DNA from: Nitrospirales bacterium
GTDB lineage: Bacteria > Nitrospirota > Nitrospiria > Nitrospirales > UBA8639
DNA: 64,000 bases
Assembly (NCBI GenBank): GCA_965223295.1
Contig: CBDCWC010000003.1
Coordinates: forward strand, 416,001 to 480,000
Reading direction: 5' to 3'
Positions 26,976 to 59,841 of this stretch are shown here, one piece after another. The translations under genes and the position numbers were made by a program. The notes beneath the pieces are model-generated. The model worked only from the letters and a program-made list of their open reading frames with translations, had not been told where the DNA came from and did not search any database. Numbering within the stretch: the first letter of the stretch is position 1; every line of letters begins with the position of its first letter.

Positions 26976-27168
26976 GGGGTCTGTTGAAAAAAGCCGCCAG
27001 CGGCGTTCTCGCCATTTTTCCGTGCTCACGTAGGACTCGTACGCTCCGCGCGCAAACATGGCTGTGGCCTTGCTGGACGGACTTTTTTGAACAGACCCGA
27101 GGCCTCTGACATATAACACCACAGAGGCTAAATGTGGCCGTTGATATCATCATTATTCAACAGTCCCA
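26976..27168 (+). repeat. Dispersed MITE-like element, copy B
   Basis: Terminal IRs GGGTCTGTTGAA / TTCAACAGTCCC, internal IR TTGAACAGACCC, flanked by TTC...TTC. Confidence 0.92.
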
Positions 27169-27224
27169 TTCAGAAAGATTTGGACGGGCTCTTCAATACC
27201 GAATACCGGTAAAACGGATAGTGC

Positions 27225-27878
27225 TTACCGGTTGGGAGAGAAACGAATGAGTAAATCATCCGCATATTGGAAAGGCGTATGCTGCTCAGGATGGCTGATA
27301 AACGGTCTCGTGATACGCAGGCGAATGGTGTGAGGACCCGCTTTCACACGATATCGGCCTTCAAAATGATGACGAAGAACTTTTCCATTCTCGATTGGTC
27401 CCATATCATGACTGGCAATAACGTGGTCATCCACGACCCACTCAAAACGGCCACCGGCTAAATTTCGTTTATCTTTTGGTGAATGATAGGTCACTGCGAT
27501 ATGAGCTGAGAGGTCGAGGCGTCCTATTTCGGTCGTGATCTGGACCAACACGCCCCCTCCCTGATCAGCTGCGTTTTCGGGGTCATATTGGACTTGCCCA
27601 ACTTGAAATTTGAGACTCTGAGACTCTTGGCCGTCTTTGAGCATGTCAAACGGAGTAACGATCGGCCAGCCATCTCCACCAATCGTGCCATTGGGCGTCA
27701 CAAACCTTTCCCAGGGAATCTTTTCTCCATGCTCAAAATTTGTCCGACTGAGTGTCGATGCCTCACCGATAGGCACGCTGGCCAGCACCAGAACTGTCCA
27801 TATCCAGGAGACTTTAAAGAAGGCAACCGGCGACAGTCGGTATGGCTTGATCATTTGCGCTCTTCTACGTTGATTCAT
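27225..27878 (-). CDS. Hypothetical exported protein
   Basis: 217 aa ORF with signal-peptide-like N-terminus; no recognised family. Confidence 0.6.
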   Translation of the reverse strand: MNQRRRAQMIKPYRLSPVAFFKVSWIWTVLVLASVPIGEASTLSRTNFEHGEKIPWERFVTPNGTIGGDGWPIVTPFDMLKDGQESQSLKFQVGQVQYDPENAADQGGGVLVQITTEIGRLDLSAHIAVTYHSPKDKRNLAGGRFEWVVDDHVIASHDMGPIENGKVLRHHFEGRYRVKAGPHTIRLRITRPFISHPEQHTPFQYADDLLIRFSPNR

Positions 27879-27981
27879 TGGTCATCTTGGGTTCAGATTG
27901 TGATGTTTTATATAAAATAGGTGTTATTTCGCCAATTTCCACGGTATTATAAAAGGTTTTATCACCAAGGAGCCAATATTC

Positions 27982-29082
27982 ATGTTCACAGTCATGTCTT
28001 CAGTTTTATCGCAAGCAATAACTTATACCATCCTTGTTCTAGGGTTCGGGTTGGGGATTGGAATATCCATCCCTTTTTCGGTAGCGGCCTCTTCTGTCAT
28101 AAACACTCCCGCTGTTCCACTTCAAAAGATTCAACAGGTTCGTGTTGAGACGCTTGCACTCACTGAAAGAGGGTTGCAAGACTCTTCTAGCTTGCACCAG
28201 GTCGTGGGCAAACGTTTAACTCAAGCCGGTTTTACTCCAGTCCATGACGCAAATACTCCTTCAGATGTTGTCGTACGAGTAAAATGCGAAGAACGAAAAA
28301 CGCAGACGGGTCCCAGTCGAAACCGAAAGAGGGGACATGCCTTGTCAACGGCTTCTCGCCTTTGGAAAGGGCCTGCCTGCCGTGTTTCCTATCGATATCA
28401 GGGAAAACCCTCCCGTTGGAGTAGAGAAATACAAGCCCCGTTTGAAGACCCTCTACAGGCAGCCAAGGCTGCTGATGCGTCCAATGCAGGTCAGTATGCC
28501 TTACATGCGTTACAGACCCAACTTGCTCAAGATGAATTTCCCCTGTATCTGGCAGCGGATTGGGGACAAGCCGATCGTCTAATCCAGGTGTTTCAGCAAG
28601 CAGCAGATCAACCGGACCGACGCCGTCTCATTCTTGAATTACTCGGCCCTCTCAGTTCCCCAGCTGCTCTGGCAACCATCAAAGAAGCCTTAACAAACCC
28701 TGAACTGGCCTTGGCCGCAATTGCAGCGCTTGGAGACCAGGGTGAAATAGCCATTTCTTCGTTGATCAATATTTTGAACTCGTCTGAACGCCCTGAACAC
28801 AAACTCGCAGCCCTCAAGTCATTAGGGGAAATTGCCACTCACAGCTCACCTCCCACTCTTTATGATGTGTTTGTCAAACAATTGAAATCCCAAGATCCTC
28901 GCATGCAAGCTATCGCGGTTCGAGGATTGGGACGCTTAGGGGATCTACGAGCGGTCACGCCAATAGAAGCCCTCAATATTCAGGCCTGGTCCAACCCTTC
29001 CACTCATGCCGACATGCAAGCGTTACGGGAAGCCTTAAATTGGAGTCTCTATCAGTTGGACGCCTCTTCTTCATCCCACTGA
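27982..29082 (+). CDS. HEAT-repeat protein with N-terminal membrane anchor
   Basis: AAIAALGDQG, AALKSLGEI, AVRGLGRLGDLRAVTP repeats. Confidence 0.75.
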   Translation: MFTVMSSVLSQAITYTILVLGFGLGIGISIPFSVAASSVINTPAVPLQKIQQVRVETLALTERGLQDSSSLHQVVGKRLTQAGFTPVHDANTPSDVVVRVKCEERKTQTGPSRNRKRGHALSTASRLWKGPACRVSYRYQGKPSRWSREIQAPFEDPLQAAKAADASNAGQYALHALQTQLAQDEFPLYLAADWGQADRLIQVFQQAADQPDRRRLILELLGPLSSPAALATIKEALTNPELALAAIAALGDQGEIAISSLINILNSSERPEHKLAALKSLGEIATHSSPPTLYDVFVKQLKSQDPRMQAIAVRGLGRLGDLRAVTPIEALNIQAWSNPSTHADMQALREALNWSLYQLDASSSSH

Positions 29083-29157
29083 TATGGAACCCAGGGACTG
29101 AGTCCCGAAAGGGACCACACCTCTGCATGCTAAGCAAATATCTCTGTTATTACTTTC

Positions 29158-29349
29158 GGAGACTGTTGAATAATGATGATAGCAACGGCCAAATTTCGTC
29201 TCTACGACGTCACATGTCAGAGGCATCGGGGCTGTTCAAAAAGTTCGTCCAGCAAGGCCACAGCCATGTTTGCGCGCGGAGCGTCCTGGCAGTACGTGAG
29301 CACGGAACAATGGCGAGAATGCCGCTGGCGGATTTTTTCAACAGACCCT
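29158..29349 (-). repeat. Dispersed MITE-like element, copy C
   Basis: Reverse orientation of copy B; flanked by TTC...TTC. Confidence 0.92.
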
Positions 29350-29458
29350 TTCAGGGCACTAGCAGGCATTCCCAGCTTTACTTTTATCATACGCCCGACA
29401 TAGGCTTTTCCTATCGAATTCTTGGGAGGTAGTCTCAACAAGGAACCAACAAAGACCG

Positions 29459-31159
29459 ATGAAACCCACATCACATCGACAAGCCCCAAAACTTTCAGGA
29501 ACATCCGAGGCTCAGAACCTTTCTGCTGAAGCCCATCGTCTTTTCCAAGAAGCTGTCGGCCACCATCAATCTAAACGTCTTCAACAGGCTAAAGCCGGCT
29601 ATGACTACATTCTGGAGCAATTTCCTCATCATGCAGATTCCTTACACCTTCGAGGACTCGTGGCGTATCAACAGGGGCAATATGGGCTTGCACTGCAACT
29701 TATTCACCAGGCTACTTCTCTTGATAAGACCAAACCTCATTACTGGTTTAACTACGCTTTAGTGTTGGAAAAGGAAGAGCGTTGGGAAGAAGCTATCTCC
29801 AGCTATCAAGAAGCCATCCGACTCAAACCTCACTATGTCGAAGCGCTGAATAATGTTGGGAATATCTATCGACAACGGCGGCAATGGGACAGCGCCATTT
29901 CCGCCTATGAAGAGGCCAGGAGACTCAAACCACAATCTGCGGATCTGTTGAATAATTTAGGAGTTGTGTATAAGGAAAAAGGTGACCTCGTTCAAGCTCT
30001 GGCACATTACCAACAGGCCACACATTTCTCTCCTCAACATGCACACGCGCATCATAATACGGGAGTGGTGCTGAAGGACCAAGGGAAACTGAAAGAAGCT
30101 GCGACCGCCTTCAAGCAGGCGTTAACTCTCAACCCTAATTATGCCAACGCCCATTATCACTTAGGGTTAATCTTGCTCTGGCAACAACATACTGCGGAGG
30201 CTCTCGTCTGTTTCCAACATTCGGCAAACCTCACTTATAACCACGGGAAAGGGGTGGCTCCGCCATTTGTGACCAAAGCTCGGCTTAAACATGATGCAGA
30301 ACAACTCGACTACCTTGCAGCTCATCACCTTTCAATAACATTTCCATCAGAATATCAGAATGCCTTGAAAAGCATTGCTGCACGCCGCAATCAAGAAGCC
30401 TCCAACTCCATCTTTGTTCAGCTCACACCAGATGAGCAAAGAACTCTGGCCCCGTCGTTTCATCAATTGTTGTATGTCCGCCAGACTGAAGTTCTTCCTG
30501 GCTCAGCCGTCAATCCTAATCTCGATATCGCCAAAATTGAAGCGCAATATTTCTCTACACAGCCCGAAGCCATGTTTGTAGACAACCTCCTTACCCAAGA
30601 AGCGTTAACCGCATTGCGGGCTTTCTGTTTGGAATCCACCATATGGAAACGCGATTATCAAAATGGTTATATCGGGACCTTTTTGGCCAATGGGTTCGCT
30701 TGCCCGCTTCTCCTCCAAATTGCGGAAGAGTTACGCAGCCGATTTCCCCGCATTTTTCGACACCACCAACTGGTCCAAGCCTGGGCCTTCAAACACGATA
30801 GTGCTTTACGCGGTCTCAACATGCATGCCGATGCTGCCGCCGTCAATGTCAACTTCTGGATTACTCCGGATGAAGCCAACCGGAATATGGAGTCAGGAGG
30901 GCTGGTCGTATGGGATAAGGAAGCCCCAAATGATTGGGACTTTACCGAATATAATGACGATAAGAACAAACACAAAATTCAGGAATTTCTCGAACAAAGT
31001 CATGCCAAACCTATCACCATTCCTCATCGTCAAAACCGCGCAGTCATCTTTAATTCCAATCTCTTTCACGAAACTGATGTCATCGACTTTCATGATAACT
31101 ATGAAAGTCGCCGCATCAACGTCACTCTCCTCTACGGTCACCGCCAAAAGTCCCACTAG
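29459..31159 (+). CDS. TPR-repeat protein fused to a 2OG-Fe(II) oxygenase-like C-terminal domain
   Basis: About 7 TPRs (e.g. EALNNVGNIY, DLLNNLGVVY, AHHNTGVVL); C-terminal HAD...FHET...RRINVTLL facial-triad-like pattern. Confidence 0.8.
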   Translation: MKPTSHRQAPKLSGTSEAQNLSAEAHRLFQEAVGHHQSKRLQQAKAGYDYILEQFPHHADSLHLRGLVAYQQGQYGLALQLIHQATSLDKTKPHYWFNYALVLEKEERWEEAISSYQEAIRLKPHYVEALNNVGNIYRQRRQWDSAISAYEEARRLKPQSADLLNNLGVVYKEKGDLVQALAHYQQATHFSPQHAHAHHNTGVVLKDQGKLKEAATAFKQALTLNPNYANAHYHLGLILLWQQHTAEALVCFQHSANLTYNHGKGVAPPFVTKARLKHDAEQLDYLAAHHLSITFPSEYQNALKSIAARRNQEASNSIFVQLTPDEQRTLAPSFHQLLYVRQTEVLPGSAVNPNLDIAKIEAQYFSTQPEAMFVDNLLTQEALTALRAFCLESTIWKRDYQNGYIGTFLANGFACPLLLQIAEELRSRFPRIFRHHQLVQAWAFKHDSALRGLNMHADAAAVNVNFWITPDEANRNMESGGLVVWDKEAPNDWDFTEYNDDKNKHKIQEFLEQSHAKPITIPHRQNRAVIFNSNLFHETDVIDFHDNYESRRINVTLLYGHRQKSH

Positions 31160-31259
31160 TCTGAATTTTTCAATGGACACGATTCCTACAACACTGTTGT
31201 CTACGGGGTGAAAGAGAACGAAGCAGACACGAATTCAACTGACCCCAAATCCGAGATAA

Positions 31260-31451
31260 TGGGGCTGTTAAAAAAGCTGCCAGCAGCGTTCTCGGCATTT
31301 TTCCGTGCTCACGTCATGCCAGGACGCTCCGCGCGCAAAAATGGCTGCGGCGTTGCTGGACAGTCTTTTTTGAACCGCCCCGAACCTTTTGATGACCCTC
31401 GGCTTCTTGGCGGAACATGACTCTTGATATCATCATTATTCAACACTCCCA
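31260..31451 (+). repeat. Dispersed MITE-like element, copy D
   Basis: GGGGCTGTTAAAAAAGCTGCC...TTCAACACTCCC; flanked by TAA...TAA. Confidence 0.9.
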
Positions 31452-31548
31452 TAATAAAAGGAATACTTATGTGTAGAAACTTAGATTTCATCTCTCTGAC
31501 AATTTTCGATGAAGCCTAAGACAGGAGCCATAGGAATTTGGGGAGCCA

Positions 31549-31626
31549 TGTCATTCCCGCGAAGGCGGGAATCCAGGCTTACGGCAATAGAGGACTGGAT
31601 GCCCGCTTCGTACTGCGGGCATGACA
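31549..31626. repeat. REP-like double palindrome
   Basis: TGTCATTCCCGCGAAGGCGGGAATCCAG ... CTGGATGCCCGCTTCGTACTGCGGGCATGACA: two hairpins in inverted arrangement. Confidence 0.8.
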
Positions 31627-31702
31627 AGAGAAAAACTCTTTAACATGTCAGAGAGCAATGAATCTGACATTGTCTGTCAACTGAAGTGCAAGTTTTTACA
31701 GC

Positions 31703-32131
31703 TTATGGATCAGAGAGACACGCGAGTCTTGCTTCGTCGAATAACTGTTCAAAGAGTTTCCTTCCTTGAAGGTATTGGTCTTCCGCGTCTATCACCTTTT
31801 TTGTCCGTTCCGGCGCTTTCCACGTGGCCTCACTGCAGCGGGTAGCTTTCTCCACGCTGAAGATCCCGCCTCCCGTACAAATCGTTAATTCCCCATAAGC
31901 CTCACGTTCACGGGCCCGAGCTAATTCTATCGTGCGTTGATACGGTATCAGCGCTTCTCGGGCCTTATGAACCCCTTCAAGTGCAGCTCCACAGGAAGAC
32001 GTATAGGGCTCGGAAAGAGTCTTGGCAGGAAGTAGCAAGATCACATAACAAACCACGAGGACATAAGGGAAGACGGCCAAGACCGAATACCGAGTGGCAA
32101 GAAAACGTCGAATTCCGATTACTGGTTTCAT
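31703..32131 (-). CDS. Hypothetical membrane-anchored/exported protein
   Basis: ORF 31703-32236 with a hydrophobic segment and four Cys in the mature part; start taken at MKPVIG. Confidence 0.5.
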   Translation of the reverse strand: MKPVIGIRRFLATRYSVLAVFPYVLVVCYVILLLPAKTLSEPYTSSCGAALEGVHKAREALIPYQRTIELARAREREAYGELTICTGGGIFSVEKATRCSEATWKAPERTKKVIDAEDQYLQGRKLFEQLFDEARLACLSDP

Positions 32132-32245
32132 ATTGTCTCTTTTGAAATATTTAACAGGAAGAACACGTGCGTAGAAAGTTCTCTGATTTTTTGAAGCTAG
32201 AAATAAAATCTTCTTAGTGTAATCTCCGGAGACCAAAGGTTCAAA

Positions 32246-33040
32246 GGTTCTATCGCAATTAGCGAGCTATGGTATCATGGGCCTTTTTCAGGGGGAACCA
32301 CGATGGGCACCATCTCCTTCAAAGGCCGACATTTCCAGCGCAACATGATTCTCCAAAGTATCCGTTGGTTTCTCGCCTATTCGCTCAGTTATCGGGGTAT
32401 TGAAGAGATGATGGCGGAACGGGGCTTTTCCGTCGATCATTCCACCATCAATCGTTGGGTGCTTCAGTATTCGCCACAACTGGACGCCACCTTTCGACAC
32501 AAGAAGAAACGGGTGGGCACGCGCTGGCGAATGGACGAGACGTATATCAAGGTGAAAGGCCACTGGAAATACTATTATCGCGCCGTGGATAAGCAAGGCC
32601 AGAGCATCGACTTCCTCTTAACTGCCACCCGTGATCAGCAGGCCGCGCGGCGCTTTTTCAAGAAAGCCATCAAGCAAAACGGCAAACCGAATTTGGTCAA
32701 TATTGATCAGAGCGGCGCCAATACCGCGGGCCTCACATTGGTGAATCAAGACCACAACACGCGCATCGAGATCCGTCAGTGCAAATATCTGAACAACATC
32801 ATGGAGCAAGATCATCGACGGATCAAACAAGTGACGCGCTCGATGCTCGGCTTCGAGAACTTCTACGCCGCGCAACGCACCTTAGCCGGAATTGAAGTCA
32901 TGGCCATGATCAAGAAAGGGCAGATGAACATTCGAGCGAGCCAGGAGCAGACCTATGCCCAAATGTTCTATTCGCTCGCAGCGTAGTCAATTCGGTTGAC
33001 GGGTTGTTGTTCGCCTCCCGTTCTTGTTTGCGACACAACC
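32246..33040 (+). mobile_element. IS6-family insertion sequence (795 bp)
   Basis: Imperfect terminal IRs GGTTCTATCGCAA / TTGCGACACAACC around a complete transposase; no flanking direct repeat. Confidence 0.9.
32303..32986 (+). CDS. IS6-family DDE transposase
   Basis: FKGRHF, WRMDETYIKVKG.WKYYYRAVD, NID, KYLNNIMEQDHRRIK. Confidence 0.95.
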   Translation: MGTISFKGRHFQRNMILQSIRWFLAYSLSYRGIEEMMAERGFSVDHSTINRWVLQYSPQLDATFRHKKKRVGTRWRMDETYIKVKGHWKYYYRAVDKQGQSIDFLLTATRDQQAARRFFKKAIKQNGKPNLVNIDQSGANTAGLTLVNQDHNTRIEIRQCKYLNNIMEQDHRRIKQVTRSMLGFENFYAAQRTLAGIEVMAMIKKGQMNIRASQEQTYAQMFYSLAA

Positions 33041-33096
33041 CCAAACCTCGCTGCCATTCAGGCTTTTGCAGGGTTTAAAGGGAAGTCAGTATGATG

Positions 33097-33172
33097 TGGT
33101 GCGCCCGACAGGAGTCGAACCTGTAACCTCTTGATCCGTAGTCAAGTGCTCTATCCATTGAGCTACGGGCGC
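33097..33172 (-). tRNA. tRNA-Arg(ACG)
   Basis: GCGCCCGTAGCTCAATGGATAGAGCACTTGACT-ACG-GATCAAGAGGTTACAGGTTCGACTCCTGTCGGGCGCACCA. Confidence 0.97.
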
Positions 33173-33346
33173 TGACAACTTAGCGAGAATATTCCTGTAG
33201 GGTAACTCAGGAAGAGCCTCTTTATACAGGTCTGTCACTTTTTCCGTCAACTCTGGACAAGACCCGCGCTTGTTGGTCTTTGGGCATACGAAAATTTTCC
33301 ACCTTTTTCGTAAAGAGCTTTAGAGCTGGGAGGAACAGAAGAAAGC

Positions 33347-39019: not shown

Positions 39020-39024
39020 ATCTT

Positions 39025-39471: not shown

Positions 39472-39664
39472 TGGGAGTGTTGAATAATGAAGATATCAAA
39501 AGCCATATTTCGCCATGAAGCCCTTGGCGATCAACAACCTCGGGGCTGTTCAAAAAAGTCCGTCCAGCAAGGTCACCGCCATTTTTGCGCGCGGAGCGTC
39601 CTGGCAGTACGTGAGCACAGAACAATGGTGAAAACGCTGCTGTCGGCTTTTTTCAACAGACTCT
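39472..39664 (-). repeat. Dispersed MITE-like element, copy E
   Basis: GGGAGTGTTGAATAAT...TTTTTCAACAGACTC; flanked by CTT...CTT. Confidence 0.92.
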
Positions 39665-40141: not shown

Positions 40142-40275
40142 ATTCACCCTGACCCAATCATCCAAGTTATCCCTAGCTTGGTCGTTTGGAAGTAGAGAGT
40201 AACCGGACTAGTTACGATGATGATCGAAGAAATACCCCACTGTGCTTCCACCATGTCTTCAAAAGGAGACTTTTC

Positions 40276-43200
40276 ATGAAAATTGCACGACGTTTTACGA
40301 AACTTGGCGAGAGCCCTTATCAGACCATTCCCTTTTCCACACGATCTTCGGAAATCAGAAATCCTGACGGATCAGCTGTCTTTAATCAGGACAATATTCT
40401 GGCTCCTGAACATTGGTCTCAATTGGCTATCGACATTTTAGCGCAAAAATATTTTCGTAAAGCCGGCGTGCCGCAATATGACGATGACGGTCAACCCCTC
40501 TTTAACGAGAAGGGCGGGCCCTTACTTGGAGGGGAACGTGATGCTCGCCAGGTCTTTCACCGCTTGGCAGGATGCTGGACCGAATGGGGGAAGAATCATC
40601 ATTACTTTGACTCTCCAGAAGATGCTCAGACCTTTAAGGATGAACTCAGCTACATGTTAGCGTGGCAAATGGCAGCCCCCAATTCTCCGCAATGGTTTAA
40701 TACCGGCTTGCATTTTGCCTATGGCTTATCCGGTCCCTCGCAAGGCCATTACTATGTGGACCCCAATACCCATCGGGTCAAGCAAGCACGCAATGCGTAT
40801 GAACGTCCGCAAGTGCATGCCTGTTTCATTCAATCTATTTCTGATGATTTGGTCAACGAAGGTGGGATTATGGACCTCTGGGTTCGTGAAGCCCGTCTGT
40901 TTAAATACGGCTCCGGAACCGGCACGAATTTCTCAAAGTTACGGGCTGATGGAGAGGCTTTATCCGGCGGCGGCCGTTCTTCCGGACTGATGTCGTTTCT
41001 CAAAATCGGGGATCGAGCGGCAGGCGCTATTAAATCGGGCGGGACGACAAGACGAGCGGCAAAAATGGTCTGTCTAGATCTGGATCACCCTGACATCGAA
41101 GAGTTTATTGATTGGAAGGTTGTAGAAGAACAAAAAGTCGCGGCCATGGTCACCGGCTCAAAGATTTGCGCGCAACATCTCAACACCGTGCTCAAGGCCT
41201 GCCATGCTTCCAAACCTGATGGCACCATGCAGCTCAACGTCAATCCAGCCGAAAATTCCGCCTTACAGGAGGCAATCAAAGCCGCCCGTGAGATGTCTGT
41301 GCCTGAAGCCTATATTCAACGCATGTTCAATTATGCCCAAGAAGGGTTCACCCATTTTGTCTTTCATGAATACGACACCAATTGGGATAGTAAAGCCTAC
41401 CAAACGGTCTCAGGGCAAAATTCCAATAACAGCATTCGGGTGCCCAATGAATTTTTTGTCGCGCTCAAATCTGGCGGCGATTGGACATTGACCCGTCGCA
41501 CAGATGGCAGTGTGTTCAAAACCATTCCTGCCAAGGACCTTTGGGACCGAATTTCATGGGCTGCTTGGATTTGTGCCGATCCCGGCATTCAATATGACAC
41601 GACCATCAATGAATGGCACACCTGCCCACAAGCTGGGCGGATTAACGCGTCAAATCCCTGCAGTGAATATATGTTCTTAGATGACACCGCATGTAATCTA
41701 GCATCTTTAAATCTCGGGCGGTTTCTGACGCCAGAGGGCCAATTCGATATTGAAGGATTTCGGCATGGCGTACGGTTATGGACAATTGTCTTAGAAATTA
41801 GCGTCTTAATGGCTGGATTCCCCAGTCGGGCCATCGCCGAAAAAAGCTTTTCTTTCCGCACACTCGGATTGGGCTATGCCAATCTTGGCTCAATTCTCAT
41901 GAAGTTAGGCATCTCCTATGACTCACCCGAAGCCTTAGCCTGGTGCGGCGCCATCACAGCCTTGATGACCGGGGAATCCTACGCCACCTCTGCAGAAATG
42001 GCCAAGGAACTTGGGCCTTTCAATGCCTATCCCCGTAATGCTGAATCTATGTTGCGAGTCATGCGGAACCATCAACGAGCCACGCACAATGTTGAACCAG
42101 ACGAGTATGAAGGACTCACCATTACCCCTCAAGGTATACCGCAAGATCAATGTCCACAAGACTTGCTGACAGCTGCGCAGAAATCCTGGGATCGGGCCCT
42201 TGAACTAGGGGAACAATATGGCTACCGCAATGCTCAATCAACGGTTATCGCACCAACTGGGACCATTGGCTTAGTCATGGACTGTGATACCACTGGTATC
42301 GAACCTGACTTTGCTCTCGTCAAATTCAAGAAACTTGCGGGCGGAGGGTATTTTAAAATTATCAACCAAAGCTTGCCGCCAGCCTTACGAAATCTGGGAT
42401 ATAGCTCCTCCGAGATTCAAGACATTATTACCTATGCCACCGGTACTCGTACGCTCAAGCAAGCGCCATTTATTAACCATGAAACTTTGCAAGCCAAAGG
42501 ATTTGACCGAACCATCCTGGAACATCTTGAAACAACATTGGACGGAGCCTTTGATATTCAATTTGTCTTTAATAAATGGACGTTGGGAGAAGACTTCTGT
42601 CGCAACACATTAGCACTCACCGACGCACAACTTGAAAATCCACAACTGAATATCCTTCAACATTTAGGCTTTACACAAGAGGAAATTCTGGCCGCCACAG
42701 ATTTTTGCTGCGGCACCATGACCGTGGAGGGCGCACCACATCTCAAACCGGAACATTTAGCGATCTTTGACTGTGCCAACCGATGCGGACGCATTGGGCA
42801 ACGGTATATTCTGCCTCAAGCTCATATTCGAATGATGGCCGCAGCCCAGCCATTTATCAGCGGGGCTATCAGCAAAACCATCAATATGCCAGCCGATGCG
42901 AGTGTGGATTCGGTCAAAGATGCATATCTCTCGTCATGGACTTCCATGTTAAAAGCCGTGGCCTTGTATCGTGACGGCTCCAAACTTAGTCAACCATTGA
43001 ATTCCGTAAGCGATTGGGGAGAGGCATCGGCTCAAGCCGAGCAAGTCCAATCTGTGGCGAAAGAGGCCGCCTCGCGTGTGCTTGTCCGTTATCTGGCAAA
43101 ACGACGCCCTCTTCCAACACGCCGTGGTGGCTATACGCAGAAAGCCATTGTTGGAGGACATAAGATTTATTTACGAACAGGCGAGTACGAAGACGGCACG

Positions 43201-43809
43201 CTTGGAGAAATTTTTCTGGACATGCACAAAGAAGGCGCCGCCTTCCGGAGTCTCATGAATTGTTTTGCCATCGCTATCTCCCTTGGTCTCCAGCATGGCG
43301 TCCCTCTTGAAGAATTCGTGGATGCCTTTCTGTTTACACGTTTTGAACCGAATGGACCGGTCAAACTCAACAACCATATCAAGATGTCCACGTCGATCAT
43401 CGATTACATTTTCCGTGAAATGGCCATTACCTATCTTGGCAGACATGACCTGGAACAAGTTGCCCCGGAAGACCTTCGGGTGGATGCCCTCAAGAAACAA
43501 ACAGACACGGAAGAAGGAGATGGAGAAGGTTTGGTAGACCCTCGTTCGTTGAGTTCAACCTCCATTAGTCCGGAAGTTTTTCCCTCTCGCCGATCATCCG
43601 AGAATGGAAAAGGAAAGAACGGTGGTCCGAGAAAAATCGCACGGAAAGTCGAAATGCAACGTGAAACCGTGACCGTTACTGAAGTTCAGGAAGCCCGGCA
43701 AAAAGGATACGAGGGCGATCCTTGTCAAGAATGCAAGCAATTTATGATGGTCCGCAATGGCATGTGCCTGAAGTGCGACAACTGTGGTGCCACCAATGGA
43801 TGCTCCTAA
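40276..43809 (+). CDS. nrdJ: Class II (adenosylcobalamin-dependent) ribonucleotide reductase, single chain with TSCPD-like domain and C-terminal Cys cluster
   Basis: [68 protein letters not shown] before MKIARRF. Confidence 0.96.
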
Positions 43810-44015
43810 TGGGTCTGTTGAAAAAAGCCGCCAGCGGCGTTCTCGCCCTTGTTCCGTGCTCACGTCGTGCCAGGACGCTCCGCGCGCAAAAATGGCTGCG
43901 GCCTTCCCTTCGACAAGCTCAGGGCATGCTTTTTTGAACAGCCCTGATGCCTCTGACATGTGACGTCGTAGAGACGAAATGTGGCCATTGATATCATCAT
44001 TATTCAACAGTCCCC
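43810..44015 (+). repeat. Dispersed MITE-like element, copy F (inserted at the nrdJ stop codon)
   Basis: Flanked by TAA (the nrdJ stop, 43807-43809) and TAA (44016-44018); carries a CCCTTCGACAAGCTCAGGGCA insert. Confidence 0.92.
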
Positions 44016-45518: not shown

Positions 45519-45596
45519 TGGCGTCCCCAGCGGGATTTGAACCCGCGTTGCCGCCTTGAAAGGGCGGCGTCCTAGGCCAGGCTAGACGATAGGGAC
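45519..45596 (-). tRNA. tRNA-Glu(TTC)
   Basis: GTCCCTATCGTCTAGCCTGGCCTAGGACGCCGCCCT-TTC-AAGGCGGCAACGCGGGTTCAAATCCCGCTGGGGACGCCA. Confidence 0.97.
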
Positions 45597-45856: not shown

Positions 45857-46287
45857 TGGTGGAGGAGCGGGCCTGTAAGCCGGATTCTGTACCGATAGAG
45901 GCAAGCCTTATCGGCGGTGACCATTTCTCTAGAACCTAAGTTACCCTAGGCTTCAAGCAACCTACCCGGGAACCTTGGCCGGGCCGACCTCCCTCTCCGA
46001 GAGTGGGAAATGACTTTCACACTTCACGGAGATTCGTTCCCCTATTTGGTTTTGCTCCAGGTGACGCTTACCCTGCCGCTTATGTCACCACAAGCGCGGT
46101 GAGCTCTTACCCCACCATTTCACCCTTACCTGACTGAAGCCAAAGCCCCAGCCATCGGCGGTATCTTTTCTGTGGCGCTAGTGTCGGATTGCTCCGCCTG
46201 GGCGTTACCCAGCACCGTGCCCTATGGAGTCCGGACTTTCCTCTCACCTATGAATAGGTGAGCGGCCACCCGGCCCACTTCCACCAT
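45857..46287 (-). ncRNA. rnpB: RNase P RNA (class A)
   Basis: Minus strand has GAGGAAAGTCCGGACTCC, GCCACAGAAA, GGGTGAAATGGTGGGTAAGAGC, ACAGAATCCGGCTTAC and pairing 5'/3' ends; ends approximate. Confidence 0.95.
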
Positions 46288-46345
46288 CACCTATCGTAGG
46301 CCGAGAAGAAAATGAATGCAAGGGAATGATGAAGAGCACTAACCG

Positions 46346-47136: not shown

Positions 47137-47213
47137 TGGTGGGCCCACCAGGACTTGAACCTGGGACCAACTGATTATGAGTCAGTCGCTCTAACCAACT
47201 GAGCTATGGGCCC
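47137..47213 (-). tRNA. tRNA with CAT anticodon, probably tRNA-Ile2 (lysidine)
   Basis: GGGCCCATAGCTCAGTTGGTTAGAGCGACTGACT-CAT-AATCAG...GGGCCCACCA; G1-C72 pair excludes fMet; C4-G69 and C5-G68 fit TilS determinants. Confidence 0.9.
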
Positions 47214-49125: not shown

Positions 49126-49173
49126 CTCAAGACCCTCAATGGGCAGAAAAACTGTAGGCTCTCATTGTGAAAA

Positions 49174-49366
49174 AGGCACTGTTGAATAATTCAATTTCAA
49201 GCGACAAAAAGGCCTTCAGAGCAATGGTGCCTTCAATTATGACGGGAATGGTCAAAAAAGTTCGTCCAACAAGGCCGCAGCCATTCTTGCGCGCGGAGCG
49301 TCCTGGCATGACGTAAGCACGGGAAAATGGCGAGAACGGCGCTGGCGGATTTTTTCAACATTCCCA
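49174..49366 (-). repeat. Dispersed MITE-like element, copy G (third tail subtype)
   Basis: GGCACTGTTGAATAATTCAATTTCAAG...GGGAATGGTCAAAAAAG...TTTTTTCAACATTCCC. Confidence 0.88.
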
Positions 49367-49372
49367 TAAAGA

Positions 49373-50402: not shown

Positions 50403-50408
50403 CTGCTT

Positions 50409-51946: not shown

Positions 51947-51979
51947 GGCGATTACGTACTTCGAGACAAATAAAACTGA

Positions 51980-52759: not shown

Positions 52760-53376
52760 TGCCAGGCACCAAAATTTTTTAAGACTTGCAACCCGACAGT
52801 CTGACTTTTTTCTGGATGAAATTGGGTCGCAAAAATATTGTCTTTCCAGACACTGCTGGCAAACGACACGCCATAATCTGTCTGAGTACTCACTACGACT
52901 TGCTCGTCAGGTTCAACATAAAAGGAATGGACGAAATAGACATACGAGTCAGAATTGATGCCCTGTAACGGAGGCGCCTCCTTACTAATATGAATGGTGT
53001 TCCATCCCATATGTGGAATTTTATAAGAAGAGACCACGTCCTTGGACAAAGGAATCGCCTTCACTTTTCCCGGCAATACACCCAGACCTTTATGACATCC
53101 AAATTCTTCACTTTCAGAAAACAACAGTTGAAAGCCAACACAAATACCCAAAAAAGGTTTCCCTACCTGGATTGCCCGATGAATTGGATCAACCAAGCGG
53201 TAACGAGTGACATTGGCCATACAATCGCCAAACGCTCCAACACCCGGCAGGACAACATGGCTGGCACGATCAATGGCTTCGGGATCTCGCGTGACTATGG
53301 CCTGATGCCCAACTTGCTCAAACCCTTTCTGCACACTACGGAGATTACCCATGCCATAGTCAATGATCGCAATCAT
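52756..53376 (-). CDS. hisH: Imidazole glycerol phosphate synthase subunit HisH
   Basis: DYGMGNL, LPGVGAF, LGICVG, PHMGWN, QFHPEKS. Confidence 0.98.
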   Translation of the reverse strand: MIAIIDYGMGNLRSVQKGFEQVGHQAIVTRDPEAIDRASHVVLPGVGAFGDCMANVTRYRLVDPIHRAIQVGKPFLGICVGFQLLFSESEEFGCHKGLGVLPGKVKAIPLSKDVVSSYKIPHMGWNTIHISKEAPPLQGINSDSYVYFVHSFYVEPDEQVVVSTQTDYGVSFASSVWKDNIFATQFHPEKSQTVGLQVLKNFGAWQ

Positions 53377-53420
53377 CAGTTCTCCGTTTCTCGATTCGCA
53401 CTACAGGCACATACCCATTA

Positions 53421-53495
53421 TGGGACTGTTAAATAGTTCAATTTCAAGTTATGAAAAGGCCTTCAGAGCCATGGCGGCTTTTTTGACCATTCCCA
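53421..53495 (-). repeat. Short (75 bp) internal-deletion derivative of the MITE-like element, copy H
   Basis: GGGACTGTTAAATAGTTCAATTTCAAG...GGCCTTCAGAGCCATGGCGGCTTTTTTGACCATTCCC; shares its tail with copy G; flanked by TTA...TTA. Confidence 0.85.
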
Positions 53496-53499
53496 TTAT

Positions 53500-54102
53500 T
53501 TAGAGAGAGCCTTTCGTTGACAACACTCCGGTTACCCGATCGTCTCGCCGTATCGCTTGATCCAGGGCTTTGGCCAGAGCTTTAAAAATGGCTTCCATAA
53601 TATGATGGGGATTCCGTCCATACAACACATTCACATGGAGGTTGAGCCCACCCTGACTCACAAAGGCTTGGAAAAAATCTTCAAACAGGCCCAAATCAAA
53701 GGACTTGATATAGCGCGTTGGCAACGAGACATTGTAGACGAGATAGGGGCGTCCGCTTAAATCTACCGTGACTTGGGCTAGTGTTTCATCCAAGGGCACC
53801 GACGAAAATCCAAATCGTGCAATACCCTCTTTTTTCCCCAGGGCTTGATTCAAGACTTGACCCATCACAATCCCAATGTCTTCAATGGTATGATGGTCGT
53901 CAATCTCAATATCGCCCTTGGCTTCAACCGTCAGATCAAAAAATCCATGTTTCCCTAACAGATTCAGCATGTGATCTAAAAAAGGGATCGAGGTCTGGAT
54001 CGCATTGTTGCCTTGCCCATCCAGGACCCAGATAACAGAGATCGCGGTTTCAGCCGTGGTTCGGTCCTGCGAAGCAGATCTGGGAATAGCTTGTTGACTC
54101 AT
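53500..54102 (-). CDS. hisB: Imidazoleglycerol-phosphate dehydratase
   Basis: [37 protein letters not shown]. Confidence 0.97.
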
Positions 54103-55382
54103 GTCCATCGACTCTCCATAGATTGCCTGTGCGCGTCAAACCCCTCCAAGGTAGCAAGACGGGCAACGGGGCGTTTGGCTTTCAACAATGCATTGCGAGA
54201 ATACGACACCACATTGCTCCTCTTCACATACTCGTCAACGCCGAGGCTCGAAAAAAACTTTGCACTTCCTCCCGTGGGCAACACATGATTCGGTCCTGCC
54301 ACATAATCAGCCACGGCTGGAGGCGTGTATCTTCCAACAAAAATAGCGCCTGCATGACATATACGAGGGAGATAGCGAGAGGGGGTTGTCACATTTAAAG
54401 AAAGGTGCTCCGGAGCAATGCGATTAGCCAACTCACAAGCCTCTGCTAAGTTTTTGACGACAAAGGCCATCGCATGACTACGAATCGAGCGGGAAACAAT
54501 CTTCTCACGCCCTAACTGTTTCAATTGCTGGTTGACTTCTTTGACGGTCCGTTTAGCCATAGCCGCTGATGTGGTCACGAGATAGACACAGGCTTCTTCA
54601 TCATGTTCAGCTTCACACAATAAATCTGCGGCAACATGCTTCGGGTTACTTGCGGAGTCAGCCACCACCAAAAGTTCACTAGGCCCGGCAATCATATCAA
54701 TATCCACTTGACCATAAACAAGGCGCTTTGCCGTCGCTACATACAGATTTCCCGGGCCGACAATTTTATCCACGGGGAGAATGCTTGGGGTGCCGTAGGC
54801 TAACGCCCCAATTGCCTGGACGCCCCCCACGCGATAGATTTCATCAACTCCTGCTATATCGGCTGCCACGAGCAACGAAGGATGAATAGTACCGGTGGGG
54901 GTTGGTGTACACATCACAACACGACCAACTCCTGCCACTTTGGCCGGAATCGCATTCATCAGCACCGACGAAGGGTACACGGCTTTTCCACCAGGAACGT
55001 ACAGGCCCACGGCATCAAGGGGCGTAATCATCTGGCCAAGTTGTATCCCATCTTTCCGATAGGTCCAAGTTGAGCGGCGTTGCCTTCGGTGAAATGTCCG
55101 AATTCTCCGGGCAGCATATTTGAGTGCCGTCGCATCAGCTTTTGGCAGAGCCGAATACGCATGGCGAATTTCTTGCTGACTTACGCGCAACTGATTCGGA
55201 CGGATGCGAATCTTATCAAAACGCCAGGTCAAACGCTGAACGGCAGAATCTCCTTCCCGACGAACCGCATCCAAAATCTTCCGGACGGCTTGCTCCACCT
55301 TGACATTTTGACGGCTGCCTCGCTGACAAACCACTTCCACCGCTTTCGAGAAGCCTGCCTCTTTCCAAGAAAGAATTTTCAT
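54099..55382 (-). CDS. hisD: Histidinol dehydrogenase
   Basis: [45 protein letters not shown]. Confidence 0.97.
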
Positions 55383-56056
55383 CGGCGCACGCCTTTTTTC
55401 TTTATAGAAGATGATTGAGTGTTCTTCACTTGCTGTTTAATTCGCGCGATCACGTCGGTTACCAAAGCATGTTTCATCTTTAAACTAGCTCGATTCACAA
55501 TCAAACGGGCCGAAGACCATGCGATGACTTCCTCTTCAACCAAATTATTGGCTTTCAGCGTCTTGCCGGTCTCCACTAAATCCACAATCCGATCAGCCAG
55601 TCCTACCAACGGGGCCAACTCGATCGATCCGTATAATTTTATGAGTTCAACAGGCATCCCCTGTTGATTAAAAAACCGTTCAGTAATCGTCGGATATTTT
55701 GTGGCCACACGAAGCTTGGAAGACAAACGCTGTACGGGAGTTTGCCCATTCGGTTTCGCCACCACTAATTTACAACGCCCTAAACCAAGATCCACCGGTT
55801 CATACACATCGGGGCTTTGCTCTAACAACACATCCTTACCAACCACTCCGAGATCAGCCGCTCCATACTCGACATAGACCGGCACATCACTGGGCCGCAC
55901 AATCAAGACCCGATGGCCATGGTCTGGATATTCCAAAATCAAACGGCGCTCATCATCTAGCACATGATAGGCAGAGTACCCAGCTTTCCGGAATAAGGAA
56001 AGTGTTGGCGGAAGCAGTTTGCCCTTTGACAGGGCAATCGTCATACCTTCACTCAT
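55379..56056 (-). CDS. hisG: ATP phosphoribosyltransferase, short form
   Basis: ALSKGKL, VATKYP, GSIELAP..G..D.IVDLVETGKTL; 225 aa, lacks the C-terminal regulatory domain. Confidence 0.96.
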   Translation of the reverse strand: MSEGMTIALSKGKLLPPTLSLFRKAGYSAYHVLDDERRLILEYPDHGHRVLIVRPSDVPVYVEYGAADLGVVGKDVLLEQSPDVYEPVDLGLGRCKLVVAKPNGQTPVQRLSSKLRVATKYPTITERFFNQQGMPVELIKLYGSIELAPLVGLADRIVDLVETGKTLKANNLVEEEVIAWSSARLIVNRASLKMKHALVTDVIARIKQQVKNTQSSSIKKKGVRR

Positions 56057-57312
56057 ACAGCTTCCCGTACTCGCCGAACCTGACCACCCAATAGTCCAAT
56101 TTTTTCTTCCAGTCGTTCGTATCCTCGATCTAAATGGTACACTCGCGAAATGATCGTCTCTCCTTCAGCAGCCAATCCAGCCAAGACCAACCCCGCACTC
56201 GCGCGAAGATCGGAAGCCATAACCGGAGCCCCGGCAAGAGTCGGAATGCCTTTCACCACCGCATGCGGCCCGTCCACTTCAATTGAGGCCCCCATTCGAT
56301 GCAACTCCGGAACATGGAGAAACCGCCCTTCGAAAATGGTTTCTGTCAAGACACTTGTTCCTTCAGCCACAGTCATTAATGCCATCATTTGAGCCTGCAG
56401 ATCCGTCGGAAACCCTGGGTACGGTAAGGTTTTTACTTCAAGAGCCTTGAGGGGCAAAGGGCGGCGAACACGTAATCCTTCAGCACTTTCTGTTAGCTCC
56501 ACTCCCATTTCCTGCATTTTCGTCAACACATTTCCCAAATGATCCGTCACACAACCCCTGATCGTGACATCCCCACCAGTAATCGCGCCCGCCATGACAA
56601 ATGTGCCAGCTTCCACGCGATCTGGCATGACCCTATAACTTGCCCCATGCAATTCGGACACGCCTTCGATCGTAATGGTATCCGTTCCTGCTCCGAGAAT
56701 TTTCGCTCCTCGTTTCGTGAGATACGCACATAAATCCGCAATTTCAGGTTCCCGTGCAACATTATGCAAACTCGTCGTTCCATCTGCTAAACATGCTGCC
56801 ATAATGAGGTTTTCAGTCCCTGTCACTGTTGGAAAATCTAAATCGATCCTGGCTCCCTTAAGACGACTGGCTTTGGCATGGATATACCCATGCTCAACGT
56901 GAATCTCTGCGCCCATTGCGGTCAGCGCTTTCAAATGAAGATTGACAGGACGCGTCCCAATCGCACAGCCTCCGGGCAAGGACACCTTAGCCTCGCCTAG
57001 ACGCGTTAACAAAGGTCCTAACGCCAAGATAGAGGCCCGCATCGTTTTGACTAAATCATACGGAGCTTCTATTGATTGAACTTGGCTGGCTTCTACAATC
57101 ACCCGTCCACCCTCTGTCCGAACGTCTACACCAAGCAATTCCAAGAGCTTGCCCATCGTGACGACATCCCGAACTTGTGGGACATGGTCAAGAATACATT
57201 CGCCTCCACCCAGCAGAGATGCCGCTAAAATGGGAAGCGCCGCATTCTTCGCTCCACCCACTTCAACTACGCCATGCAAAGGAACCCCGCCAATGATTCG
57301 AATTTGATCCAT
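56053..57312 (-). CDS. murA: UDP-N-acetylglucosamine 1-carboxyvinyltransferase
   Basis: GAKNAALP, SLPGGCAIGTRP, PGFPTDLQAQ, SDLRAS, HLDRGYE. Confidence 0.98.
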   Translation of the reverse strand: MDQIRIIGGVPLHGVVEVGGAKNAALPILAASLLGGGECILDHVPQVRDVVTMGKLLELLGVDVRTEGGRVIVEASQVQSIEAPYDLVKTMRASILALGPLLTRLGEAKVSLPGGCAIGTRPVNLHLKALTAMGAEIHVEHGYIHAKASRLKGARIDLDFPTVTGTENLIMAACLADGTTSLHNVAREPEIADLCAYLTKRGAKILGAGTDTITIEGVSELHGASYRVMPDRVEAGTFVMAGAITGGDVTIRGCVTDHLGNVLTKMQEMGVELTESAEGLRVRRPLPLKALEVKTLPYPGFPTDLQAQMMALMTVAEGTSVLTETIFEGRFLHVPELHRMGASIEVDGPHAVVKGIPTLAGAPVMASDLRASAGLVLAGLAAEGETIISRVYHLDRGYERLEEKIGLLGGQVRRVREAV

Positions 57313-57342
57313 ACCTCTATCAATCAAATATGAGTATCTGCA

Positions 57343-58227
57343 TTATGAATCACCAACATACTGCAAACGTGCCATCCGAGGAATCCCCTGATTGTCAGGC
57401 TGTAGCTTCACCACCTCGAAAACACCGAAAGCCGCAACTTCGCGGCAGATAGCCTCATCTTGTCCCAGCCCAAGTTCTATCAAAACAAAGCCGTTCGGAG
57501 CCAATACCACCGGCGCTTGTTTCAACAAACATCGATAGACATCCAACCCATCCGGCCCTCCGTCCAACGCCAGACGTGGCTCAAACTCTTTGACATCAGG
57601 AGAAAGACGATCCCATTCGGCGTGGGAAATATACGGTAGGTTTGCAATAATGGCCGACACTTTACCTACTAGCCCGCCGGATAACAAGGGGGCCAAAAGA
57701 TCACCCGACACCCACAAAATCTGTGAAGATACACCATGTTTTTTGGCATTTCGTTGGGCCATACGCAAGGCTAAAATCGATCGATCTGAGGCGACAATCA
57801 TCGCATGGTTGAGATGCACCGCCAGACTAATGGCCAAACAGCCTGACCCTGTTCCTATATCGAGAATAATCGGTTTCCGATACGAACTGAGAAGGGCAAT
57901 GGTATCTGCAACCAACAATTCGGATTCAGGACGGGGAATTAAGACATTTGAGTTGACAAGGAAATCTAATCCGAAAAATTCCTGACTGCCCAACACATAC
58001 TGAAGCGGCTCCCGAGAAGCCCGCCGTCGAATCAAGTCCATAGTATGCTGGTAGGCTTTTGAGTCAATCACATCATCGCCATAGGCATACAGGCGTGAAG
58101 CATTCACCCCCAACGCCGCTTCGACAATCCACAGCACTTCTCGCCTGGCATGAGCGATTCCGGCTTGGCTGAGTCGCTCCACGGCTTCGGCATACAACTG
58201 AAAAGAGGAAATGGACAAGGTCTTCAC
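57343..58227 (-). CDS. prmC: Release factor glutamine methyltransferase
   Basis: REPLQYVLG, VLIPRPESE, DIGTGSG, NLPY, EPRLALDGG. Confidence 0.95.
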   Translation of the reverse strand: MKTLSISSFQLYAEAVERLSQAGIAHARREVLWIVEAALGVNASRLYAYGDDVIDSKAYQHTMDLIRRRASREPLQYVLGSQEFFGLDFLVNSNVLIPRPESELLVADTIALLSSYRKPIILDIGTGSGCLAISLAVHLNHAMIVASDRSILALRMAQRNAKKHGVSSQILWVSGDLLAPLLSGGLVGKVSAIIANLPYISHAEWDRLSPDVKEFEPRLALDGGPDGLDVYRCLLKQAPVVLAPNGFVLIELGLGQDEAICREVAAFGVFEVVKLQPDNQGIPRMARLQYVGDS

Positions 58228-58253
58228 GGCCTTCTACAGAACCAGGCCTACGT

Positions 58254-58447
58254 AAGGGCCGTTGAATAGTGATGAGATCAACGGCCAAATTTCGTCTCTG
58301 CGACGTACCATGTCAGAGGCCTCGGGTCTGTTCAAAAAAGGTTCGTCCAGCAAGGCCGCAGCCATTGTTGCGCGCGGAACGTACTGGTCCTACGTGAGCA
58401 CGGAACAAGGGCGAGAACGCCGCTGGCGGCTTTTTGCAACAGACCCA
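58254..58447 (-). repeat. Dispersed MITE-like element, copy I
   Basis: AGGGCCGTTGAATAGTGATG...TTTTTGCAACAGACCC between prfA and prmC. Confidence 0.9.
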
Positions 58448-58489
58448 TGTAAGAAAATACAGACGATCTGAAAATCGTGCCGGAAGACG

Positions 58490-59569
58490 TTACTGCGCTT
58501 TGAGGGCGTTGACTAAATCATCCAGATCGCCTTCCATGACGCGATCCAATTTATGCAGGGTGAGCCCAATGCGATGATCGGTCACCCGATTTTGCGGGAA
58601 ATTATATGTGCGGATTTTTTCGCTACGTTCCCCAGTACCAACTTGAGAACGCCGTTGTTGGGCAAGTGAAGCCTCTTGTTTTTCACGTTCAGCATCGCCG
58701 ATACGCGTTCGGAGAGTTCGCATGGCCTTGGTACGATTTTTCAATTGCGATCGTTCATCCTGACAGGTCACCACAACTCCTGTAGGAATATGGGTAATCC
58801 GAACCGCAGAATAAGTGGTATTGACGCTTTGCCCTCCAGCACCAGATGAACAGTAGGTATCAATGCGCAAGTCTTTTTGATCAATTTGGACATCCACTTC
58901 TTCGACTTCCGGCATGACAGCTACCGTTGCCGTCGATGTATGGATGCGGCCATTTGCTTCGGTTGTCGGAACCCGTTGCACACGATGCACGCCACTTTCA
59001 TACTTAAAAAATCCAAAGGCGCCGTTTCCTTCCACTAACAAGACCGCCTCCTTCACCCCTCCGATTCCTGTCTCATGAGATTCAATTAATTCAGACCGCA
59101 ACCCTTTCGATTCAGCATATTTCAAATACATCCGCAACAGATCGCCCGCGAACAAGGCAGCCTCACCGCCTCCAGTTCCTGCGCGAATCTCAATAAATGA
59201 ATTTTTATTATTGCCTTCAGCTTCAGGACAGAGTAATTCAACCACCTGGGTCTCCAACTCATCGCGACGAGATTCCAGGCTTTCTAATTCCTCCGTGGCT
59301 AATCGCCGCATGTCAGGATCCAGCTGGAGATCCTCTGCCAAAAGCTGGGATTGCGAAATTTCTTCGAGCACTCGCCGATACTCGCCAAACATCTGAGCTA
59401 TCGGTTCCAATTCAGCCCGTTCTTTATTCAGCGAAACAAGAAGATTAGATTGCGACAAGACCGTAGGATCAGTCAATTGATCATTGAGCGTCTCGTATTT
59501 ATTGGCCAAGGCTTCCCAGCGGGAGTAGAGGCCACCGTCTCGTAGTTCGGCTTTAGTGACATTTGCCAT
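58490..59569 (-). CDS. prfA: Peptide chain release factor 1
   Basis: [22 protein letters not shown] (PxT), GAGGQ, RTYNFPQ; start uncertain. Confidence 0.97.
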
Positions 59570-59644
59570 AAGAGAGACCAATCACTGAATGATAGCAGGA
59601 CCGAATCCACACGACATATCACCTACTGAAAAGAAAAGACAGAA

Positions 59645-59841
59645 AAGGTTTGTTGAAAAAAGCCGTCAGCGGCGTTCTCGCTATTTTTCCGTGCTCACAT
59701 ACTGCCAGTAAGTATGCTCCGCGCGCAAAAAGAGCTGCGGCCTTGCTGAACGGACTTTTTTGAACAAACCCGAGGCCTCTGACATGTTACCCCTCAGACA
59801 CGAAATGTGGCCGTTGATATCATCATGATTCAACAGGCCTA
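59645..59841 (+). repeat. Dispersed MITE-like element, copy J
   Basis: AGGTTTGTTGAAAAAAGCCG...TTGAACAAACCC...TTCAACAGGCCT; flanked by GAA...GAA. Confidence 0.92.

Follow-up and report, generated by a model that had tools for sequence, protein, structure and literature searches.

A two-part miniature transposable element with a covarying hairpin module in a Nitrospirales genome

Copies of the repeat in the window and in the genome

In a previous reading, made without database searches, of a 64-kb stretch of Nitrospirales DNA (positions 416,001 to 480,000 of contig CBDCWC010000003.1; hereafter the window, meaning the whole stretch analysed), a repeat was noticed in which a hairpin module is followed by a tail with a third copy of an inverted repeat (IR). 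This architecture is confirmed here. Each full copy consists of a module of about 122 nt, in which IR1 faces IR2 in a 45-pair stem, plus a tail of about 69 nt that ends in IR3, and a fourth IR (IR4), degenerate in this fused form, can now be added at the start of the tail. The window contains nine full or near-full copies, one variant copy (A) and one mini element of 73 nt. Copy B, on the + strand at 26977-27167, has the full 191 nt (nhmmer score 207), with its module at 26977-27098 (IR1 26977-26993, IR2 27082-27098) and its tail at 27099-27167 (IR3 27151-27167). Its predicted folding energy is -81.2 kcal/mol for the + strand (z -6.6, with a fold as good in none of 200 shuffles) and -80.5 kcal/mol for the - strand, and its flanking 5-mers, CGTTC and CATTC, are identical at four of five positions with the boundary slid by 1 nt.

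Copies C (29159-29348, - strand; module 29228-29348, tail 29159-29227), D (31261-31450, + strand; module 31261-31381, tail 31382-31450), E (39473-39663, - strand; module 39542-39663, tail 39473-39541) and J (59646-59839, + strand; module 59646-59771, tail 59772-59839) are also full and are flanked by exact duplications, CTTTC (with a 1-nt slide), ATAAT, TCTTT and AGAAA (with a 1-nt slide), respectively. Copy I (58256-58446, - strand; module 58324-58446, tail 58256-58323) is full as well, and its flanks ACGTA and ATGTA match at four of five positions. The same degree of match is found around copy G (49175-49365, - strand; flanks AAAAA and ATAAA), which combines a module with the AAT/AAT end variant (49244-49365) and a tail of another type (49175-49243). 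A tail of this G type is fused straight to an IR1-type end, without the hairpin core, in the 73-nt mini element (53422-53494, - strand; exact duplication ATTAT). Copy F (43811-44014, + strand) is a 204-nt variant with a longer module (43811-43945) and the tail at 43946-44014. Its exact duplication is CTAAT, the left copy of which (43806-43810) holds the TAA stop of a called open reading frame (ORF) of 1207 codons at 40186-43809; the insertion thus hit the stop codon of that ORF and preserved the stop. Copy K (63491-63644, - strand) is a 154-nt internal-deletion variant with the exact duplication ATTTA. In copy A (16228-16421, + strand) ends and tail are as usual and the module interior is swapped for another GC-rich sequence, only model positions 97-189 being matched; its flanks, AATAT and TTGAT, present no clear duplication.

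The repeat is abundant in the whole genome (3.78 Mb). A profile made from 149 full-length BLAST hits gave 377 matches there, corresponding to 342 non-overlapping ones, 219 of which span the whole 191-nt model. Together, the 342 matches add up to 54,877 nt or 1.45% of the genome, and 311 of them overlap no gene by more than 30 nt according to our own, crude gene calls. The density of copies is higher in the spacers of convergent genes (46 in 98 kb) than in those of divergent ones (38 in 161 kb). No bias of element orientation with respect to the replication strand was seen, and between co-directional genes the element runs against the genes in 80 cases and with them in 55, a weak bias (p ~0.04).

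Insertion signature, composition and search for the mobilising enzyme

The 5-mers flanking the 219 full copies were exactly alike in 117 and had one mismatch in 44, while 200 shuffled pairings gave a mean of 1.46 exact matches and at most 5. A profile-blind search, in which a forward end was accepted whenever it faced a reverse end at a distance of 40-270 nt, yielded 136 pairs flanked by identical 5-mers, and one pair with such 5-mers 7 nt further out. The targets were varied, AT-rich 5-mers. Empty sites were found by means of contig C1 (65 kb), which lies outside the window and is a second version of C3:1,630-1,715 kb with 87-95% identity, probably a co-assembled strain variant rather than a plasmid. 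At four loci, one of the two versions was filled and the other had a precise empty site with a single 5-mer, and only two element loci were common to both. These results show that the element is a MITE (miniature inverted-repeat transposable element), that is, a non-autonomous DNA transposon that duplicates AT-rich 5-nt targets through an enzyme acting in trans, and that it has transposed since the split of two strains 92% identical.

A search for RNA data over window positions 26000-32000 yielded no run. Among the contigs of four public runs, only two observations were usable, both as hints of presence or absence. In runs X3 and X6, contigs join across 29161-29355, which corresponds to copy C (a weak hint, with one contig each). 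Contigs of the same two runs have 107 other letters in place of the 543-nt spacer at 31171-31713 that includes copy D (the sides being of 158 and 255 nt), and it seems that there is a related population without copy D. Assemblies break at element copies, and the contigs from the four runs display repeat-driven depth spikes and many repeat joints.

IR1, IR3 and also IR2 share GGGnnTGTTGAA-type ends, so that terminal inverted repeats are present. The 136 elements with exact duplications peak in length at 185-195 nt (81 of 136), with insertion and deletion variants in addition. Five tail-only elements of 69 nt plus one element of 73 nt bear each an exact duplication of its own, and IR4 is intact in the stand-alone 69-nt elements. 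The converse case that the sequence-only reading had suggested looking for, the module alone with its own target duplication, does occur but is rare, with one exact example and one matching at four of five positions. Tails of other types also occur among the elements of this genome. The 191-nt unit is therefore a tandem of two mini-elements whose outer ends, IR1 and IR3, are used for movement, and the presence of a third IR is explained because IR3 is the outer end of a separately mobile 69-nt unit that became fused to the module. An optional GC-rich insert of about 34 nt was detected in 42 copies genome-wide, all of them inside elements and in element orientation, its place being fixed and following either model position 32 or model position 102 (for instance, at C3:1785110-1785135 and, in the window, in the longer module of copy F). 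Other inserts were found after model position ~22, as in copy A.

Several candidates for the mobilising enzyme were considered and rejected. This genome has no transposase of the Tn3 family, and Tn3-type genes occur in 7 of 50 genomes of the genus, where the four loci examined, which come from three of them, carry unrelated inverted repeats. The multi-copy insertion sequences (IS) of the IS256 and IS3 types have the wrong ends or the wrong duplication length, and those of the IS1595 type agree with the end of the element in no more than its first 7 bases and produce duplications of about 8 nt. One IS1595-type copy lies within a MITE tail, and an IS1595-type insertion sequence with a 218-codon transposase adjoins a truncated MITE end in another genome (L087, G053:C283, locus ~1340-2230). 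The single DDE_Tnp_1 gene in the genome has no matching ends. There are five Y1_Tnp matches, with ORFs of the size typical of REP-associated tyrosine transposases (RAYT; REP, repetitive extragenic palindrome) among them. Two such ORFs, of 255 and 225 codons and with weak Y1_Tnp matches, are located at C3:407818-408150 (about 8 kb before the window) and C3:1175759-1176100; no element copy lies within 1.8 kb of these two, and similar single RAYT-sized ORFs recur in many genomes of the genus. The distribution over families f1, f2, f3 and f4 does not fit a Y1 or RAYT enzyme either, Y1_Tnp being present in 23/24, 6/6, 4/5 and 0/5 genomes and the element in 24/24, 6/6, 1/5 and 3/5, respectively.

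Covariation and conservation of the hairpin module

The matched changes that had been pointed out between terminal and internal IRs and in the apical stem are present in the alignment of the genome copies. At the ends, they correspond to GGGTCTGTT/AACAGACCC in copy B, GGTTTGTT/AACAAACC in J, GGGAATG/CATTCCC in G and GGGGC/GCCCC in D, and, in the apical stem, to CGTA/TACG (B and I), CGTC/GACG (D) and CATACT/AGTATG (J), copy J being thus compensated both at the module end and at the apex. Several stem pairs depict two or three Watson-Crick types across the 219 copies: pair 4:119 is TA in 109, GC in 24 and AT in 22; pair 5:118 is CG in 166 and AT in 20; and pair 21:100 is CG in 135 and TA in 22. 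The T.G wobble at pair 47:74 is retained in 170 of the 219. IR1 and IR2 share their variants at positions 4-6 (TCT, AAT, GCT, TTT), which IR3 does not follow; in most copies, positions 4-5 are not the same in IR3 as in IR1.

An all-against-all scan of the columns of the genome copies was uninformative, being swamped by G.T pairs. To lessen the founder effect, we carried out a nearest-neighbour test in which 189 well-aligned copies (of the 219) formed 161 pairs with a median distance of 9%. A compensated double was scored when both sides had changed and both versions were still standard pairs, and partners slid by 1-3 columns served as control. The stem of the module (the hairpin from IR1 to IR2) displayed 65 compensated doubles, compared with 5-14 in the slid control. 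The other possible pairings stayed at the level of their controls, with 6 doubles for IR1 and IR3 (slid control, 1-7), 11 for the predicted tail pairs (6-12) and 6 for IR4 and IR3 (3-11). The covariation is therefore real and limited to the module hairpin.

We also investigated the element in related genomes, of which 35 out of 41 were matched (24/24 in its own genus, and 6/6, 3/5 and 1/5 in three other families). Outside its own family only the module matches, with 70-82% identity. An exact two-block pattern was found in at least 120 stretches of a species collection; among the 80 stretches listed, the titles were Nitrospira, Nitrospirales or Nitrospirota, except for two metagenome-assembled genomes labelled Nitrospinota, and the pattern is present in the complete genome of Candidatus Nitrospira defluvii. 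In an alignment of 32 modules from three families, 94.6% of the cells were paired (83.4% in shuffles) and 18 of 35 pairs had double changes, with 121 double-change cells (40 in shuffles and 10-32 in the slid control). Enlarging the alignment to 74 modules gave 94.3% paired cells (83.3% in shuffles) and double changes in 16 of 28 pairs, with 239 double-change cells (91.5 in shuffles, 24-71 slid). In neither alignment did any of 500 shuffles reach such values, so that the pairing is kept by compensatory changes well beyond what descent from a few founders would give.

The terminal, sub-apical and apical stems all covary, and entire 5-bp stems have been exchanged for other complementary sequences. 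Helix 2 and the adjacent loops are invariant, partly by construction for the loci fetched by exact match, and they are so too in 28 loci recovered by similarity. Some mismatches in the stem are also kept across families; the G/G mismatch at model positions 10/113 is invariant or nearly so, as is the GTTCTC loop. Taking the best of many copies, elements are 85-90% identical between genomes whose syntenic genes match at 66-79%, and in another genus they reach up to 95% with flanks at 72-88%. The hairpin module is thus shown to be old: it is present across the Nitrospirales, its GC-rich blocks and loops are invariant, and its stems vary in matched pairs.

The homologues in Nitrospira proper (loci L035-L062 and L101-L220) are peculiar in that the module begins with CAG and not with GGG. 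The triplet directly 5' of the CAG-type module is TAG in 42 and TAA in 11, i.e. a stop in 53 of 68 loci, and never TGA. In 21 of the 68 this triplet is the exact end of an ORF of at least 80 codons on the same strand; every other offset accounts for 4 at most, and no peak is seen at the far end. An earlier sample gave 15 of 28. By comparison, such a stop triplet stands at the 5' end in only 3 of 38 loci of the GGG type. The right flank of the CAG-type loci presents no regular duplication. At one orthologous site, filled in two species and empty in two, the empty version has a single CTAG, which is compatible with a duplication of 2-4 nt or with none.

Possible roles of the fold and relation to known elements

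We believe that the most plausible explanation for these results, and one that we hold to be probable though by no means secure, is that of a trans-mobilised MITE made of two fused mini-elements, with the fold selected in the lineages that keep being copied and the inserted copies left to decay. The fold would be one of the things that a copy requires in order to go on being copied; the hairpin might be recognised as a folded single strand or as a cruciform, or its part might be to hold both conserved blocks in register. The source lineages would then be what selection acts on, and a copy, once inserted, would be little constrained and would drift. We place selection on the copied lineages and not on each locus because most of the decay in resident copies goes uncompensated. 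The covariation cannot be explained by a transposase that matches its two ends, since IR3, which is the end used with IR1, does not covary, and stems distant from the ends do.

The decay of the resident copies is in keeping with this explanation and speaks against a strong constraint on each copy: among nearest neighbours, 775 of the 996 one-sided stem changes break their pair, and divergence is alike in paired and unpaired module columns (13.5 and 14.6 differences per column, respectively). Several other observations weigh against the explanation. RNAalifold, which the sequence-only reading had proposed as a check, disclosed almost no consensus structure when run on 175 of the 219 genome copies (-1.75 kcal/mol), because so many copies carry broken pairs. 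Resident copies thus decay largely uncompensated, as in an ordinary MITE, and the earlier contention that this element departs from ordinary MITE decay holds for the pairing kept by compensation, but not for the majority of the changes within the stem. The one-sided changes yield A.C (334) above G.T (221), and this imbalance, together with the 80 vs 55 gene orientation, could hint at a strand-specific RNA role. Hairpin-templated correction could be the source of the compensated doubles without any selection, the invariance of helix 2 is neutral as evidence on account of the loci fetched by exact match, and horizontal spread would likewise be in keeping with the identities between genomes, which are best-of-many values. 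A search, though not an exhaustive one, of the genome and of the loci examined from the genus yielded no autonomous partner with the same ends. Moreover, we know of no DDE transposon that needs a folded substrate, and it is for this reason that the link between fold and mobility is given here as inferred.

An RNA element acting at the level of the host, in which the hairpin is co-transcribed with neighbouring genes and would terminate transcription, stabilise 3' ends or serve for processing, the fold being selected at each locus, is in our opinion unlikely. It would be in keeping with a GC-rich stem that, on either strand, has A6 and T6 at its sides, with two weak terminator-like hits in copies B and C, with the greater density between convergent genes, with the retained T.G wobble at 47:74 and with the position of the Nitrospira proper relatives directly after TAG or TAA, where an ORF of at least 80 codons ends in 21 of 68 loci; ERIC and Correia elements are described as acting in this manner (PMC3184786). 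However, both orientations are common in this genome, G.T is not favoured over A.C on the + strand, and terminator-like sites in a 20-kb stretch number 17, compared with 20.4 in shuffles. Paired and unpaired columns that diverge alike and a majority of uncompensated stem changes are also at odds with selection at each locus, and the loci occupied differ among strains and species.

A purely mutational origin, with replication hairpins and template switching that copy one arm onto the other and no selection on the fold, seems to us just as improbable. The template-switch mechanism is established for quasi-palindromes, and it would account for the fact that the compensated doubles are a small minority among nearest neighbours (65, with 996 one-sided changes) and are limited to the long module hairpin, the sole part of the element that strongly pairs with itself. 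Such a process may well add doubles, yet it would be expected to remove the conserved mismatches and could not keep the loops constant in sequence, whereas the G/G at 10/113, the GTTCTC loop and the T.G at 47:74 persist across families rather than turning perfect. In addition, blocks stay invariant over an order while the genes diverge, which calls for selection of some kind.

It is very doubtful that the element is of the REP/RAYT or IS200/IS605 kind, in which a Y1 (HUH) transposase would recognise the hairpin and mobilise the element as a single strand. The relatives in Nitrospira proper, with their one-sided TAG/TAA tag and no evident duplication, resemble the GTAG REPs as these are described in PMC3733652, and the genome has its five Y1_Tnp matches, RAYT-sized ORFs included. 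In this genome, however, the element makes variable 5-nt duplications and leaves precise empty sites, and only 3 of 38 GGG-type copies have the 5' stop triplet. HUH enzymes produce neither such duplications nor such empty sites. The absence of a visible replication-strand bias and the family distribution of Y1_Tnp do not fit this possibility either. Finally, a two-state switch in which IR1 would pair in turn with IR2 or IR3, which the sequence-only reading had proposed from the three IR copies and which the resemblance of IR3 to IR2 recalls, can hardly be upheld when IR1 and IR3 covary no more than slid columns, the tail pairs remain at control level, IR3 does not follow the IR1 variants, IR1 and IR2 are locked within a 45-pair stem of about -80 kcal/mol and IR3 is accounted for as the end of a separately mobile 69-nt unit.

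Alongside the trans-mobilised MITE with selection on the copied lineages, we put forward, with considerable doubt, a broader conjecture. The 122-nt module might be a folded-DNA (or RNA) recognition unit kept for the age of the Nitrospirales and read as a structure by a vertically kept enzyme of the host or of an element, and it might have been adopted by insertion chemistries of two kinds, with a staggered cut of 5 nt in the marine genus and, in Nitrospira proper, a tag-directed, duplication-poor insertion after TAG/TAA stops. Under this conjecture, the hairpin may be a standard gene-end signal in Nitrospira proper.

Similarity searches did not place the element in a known family: no Rfam family reached its gathering score on any copy, Rfam being one of the comparisons suggested beforehand, and around copy B there were only matches at chance level (E 2.4-7.2). 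A literature search, at the level of listings, found no description of such a repeat in Nitrospira. The supposition that this is an undescribed kind of system was nevertheless not borne out, because the element is a MITE with a 5-nt duplication, and a repeat of similar features with compensatory changes in its stem is already in print. This is bcr1 of the Bacillus cereus group, which is described as gene-less, about 155 bp in length, flanked by 5-bp direct repeats and transcribed, with sites that vary between close strains and compensatory changes that maintain the stem (PMC3184786). The two elements are alike in the 5-nt duplications, the strain-variable sites and the compensated stem, a likeness drawn from described features and not from a comparison of sequences. 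They differ in that the host belongs to another phylum and in that the Nitrospirales element is a fusion of two mini-elements with a core conserved order-wide. Judged by these features, bcr1 is the nearest described kind, and we claim a similarity of working and not membership.

ERIC (IRU) of the Enterobacteriaceae is described as an imperfect palindrome of about 127 bp, a MITE flanked by TA that often lies at the 3' ends of genes and affects mRNA stability (PMC3184786). The present element is like it in size and palindromic form, but unlike it in that its duplications are varied AT-rich 5-mers and not TA, and neither Rfam nor the sequence provides a link between the two. Wilson and Sharp (2006) reportedly found for ERIC that the consensus is kept better than genes are, and that size variants arise from inserts at fixed internal sites. 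Correia elements take TA as target, unlike the Nitrospirales element with its 5-nt duplications, and are similar to it in size and palindromic form. These elements (NEMIS), found in Neisseria, are described as MITEs of 100-160 bp with inverted ends and as co-transcribed hairpins that affect neighbouring genes (PMC3184786, PMC3733652). The GTAG REPs, palindromes whose one-sided tag bears TAG and is often the source of the stop codon for the ORF alongside (as described in PMC3733652), have their parallel in the CAG-type relatives of Nitrospira proper, with a tag on one side and a stop codon. REPs, for which a length of 20-40 bp is given, make no duplication, whereas in this genome the copies lack the tag and are flanked by duplications.

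Members of the Tn3 family produce 5-bp duplications and have ends that start with a run of G. The Tn3-derived inverted-repeat miniature elements (TIMEs) are thus alike in duplication length and G-run ends, but there is no resident Tn3-family transposon with matching ends. Integron attC sites, which form tandem arrays behind cassette ORFs and make no duplication, were discarded, as the copies are dispersed over both large contigs and have duplications.

The Nitrospirales are the main nitrite oxidisers of oceans, soils and treatment plants, and their repeat content is, as far as we found, undescribed. The family reported here fills about 1.5% of a genome, marks differences between strains and adjoins many genes. 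Although of an already described kind, it is distinctive in its order-wide conservation and in its two insertion signatures, and it represents a clean case of the puzzle first posed by ERIC and bcr1, namely that a selfish element without genes has its long hairpin, and parts of its sequence, better conserved than are the genes of its host. From the alignment across the order, a list of paired and invariant positions is available with which to test what reads the fold.

Apart from the element, the window contains an RNase P RNA (class A, 313 bits) at 45860-46281 on the - strand, and three tRNA genes on the same strand at 33100-33172, 45522-45596 and 47140-47213.

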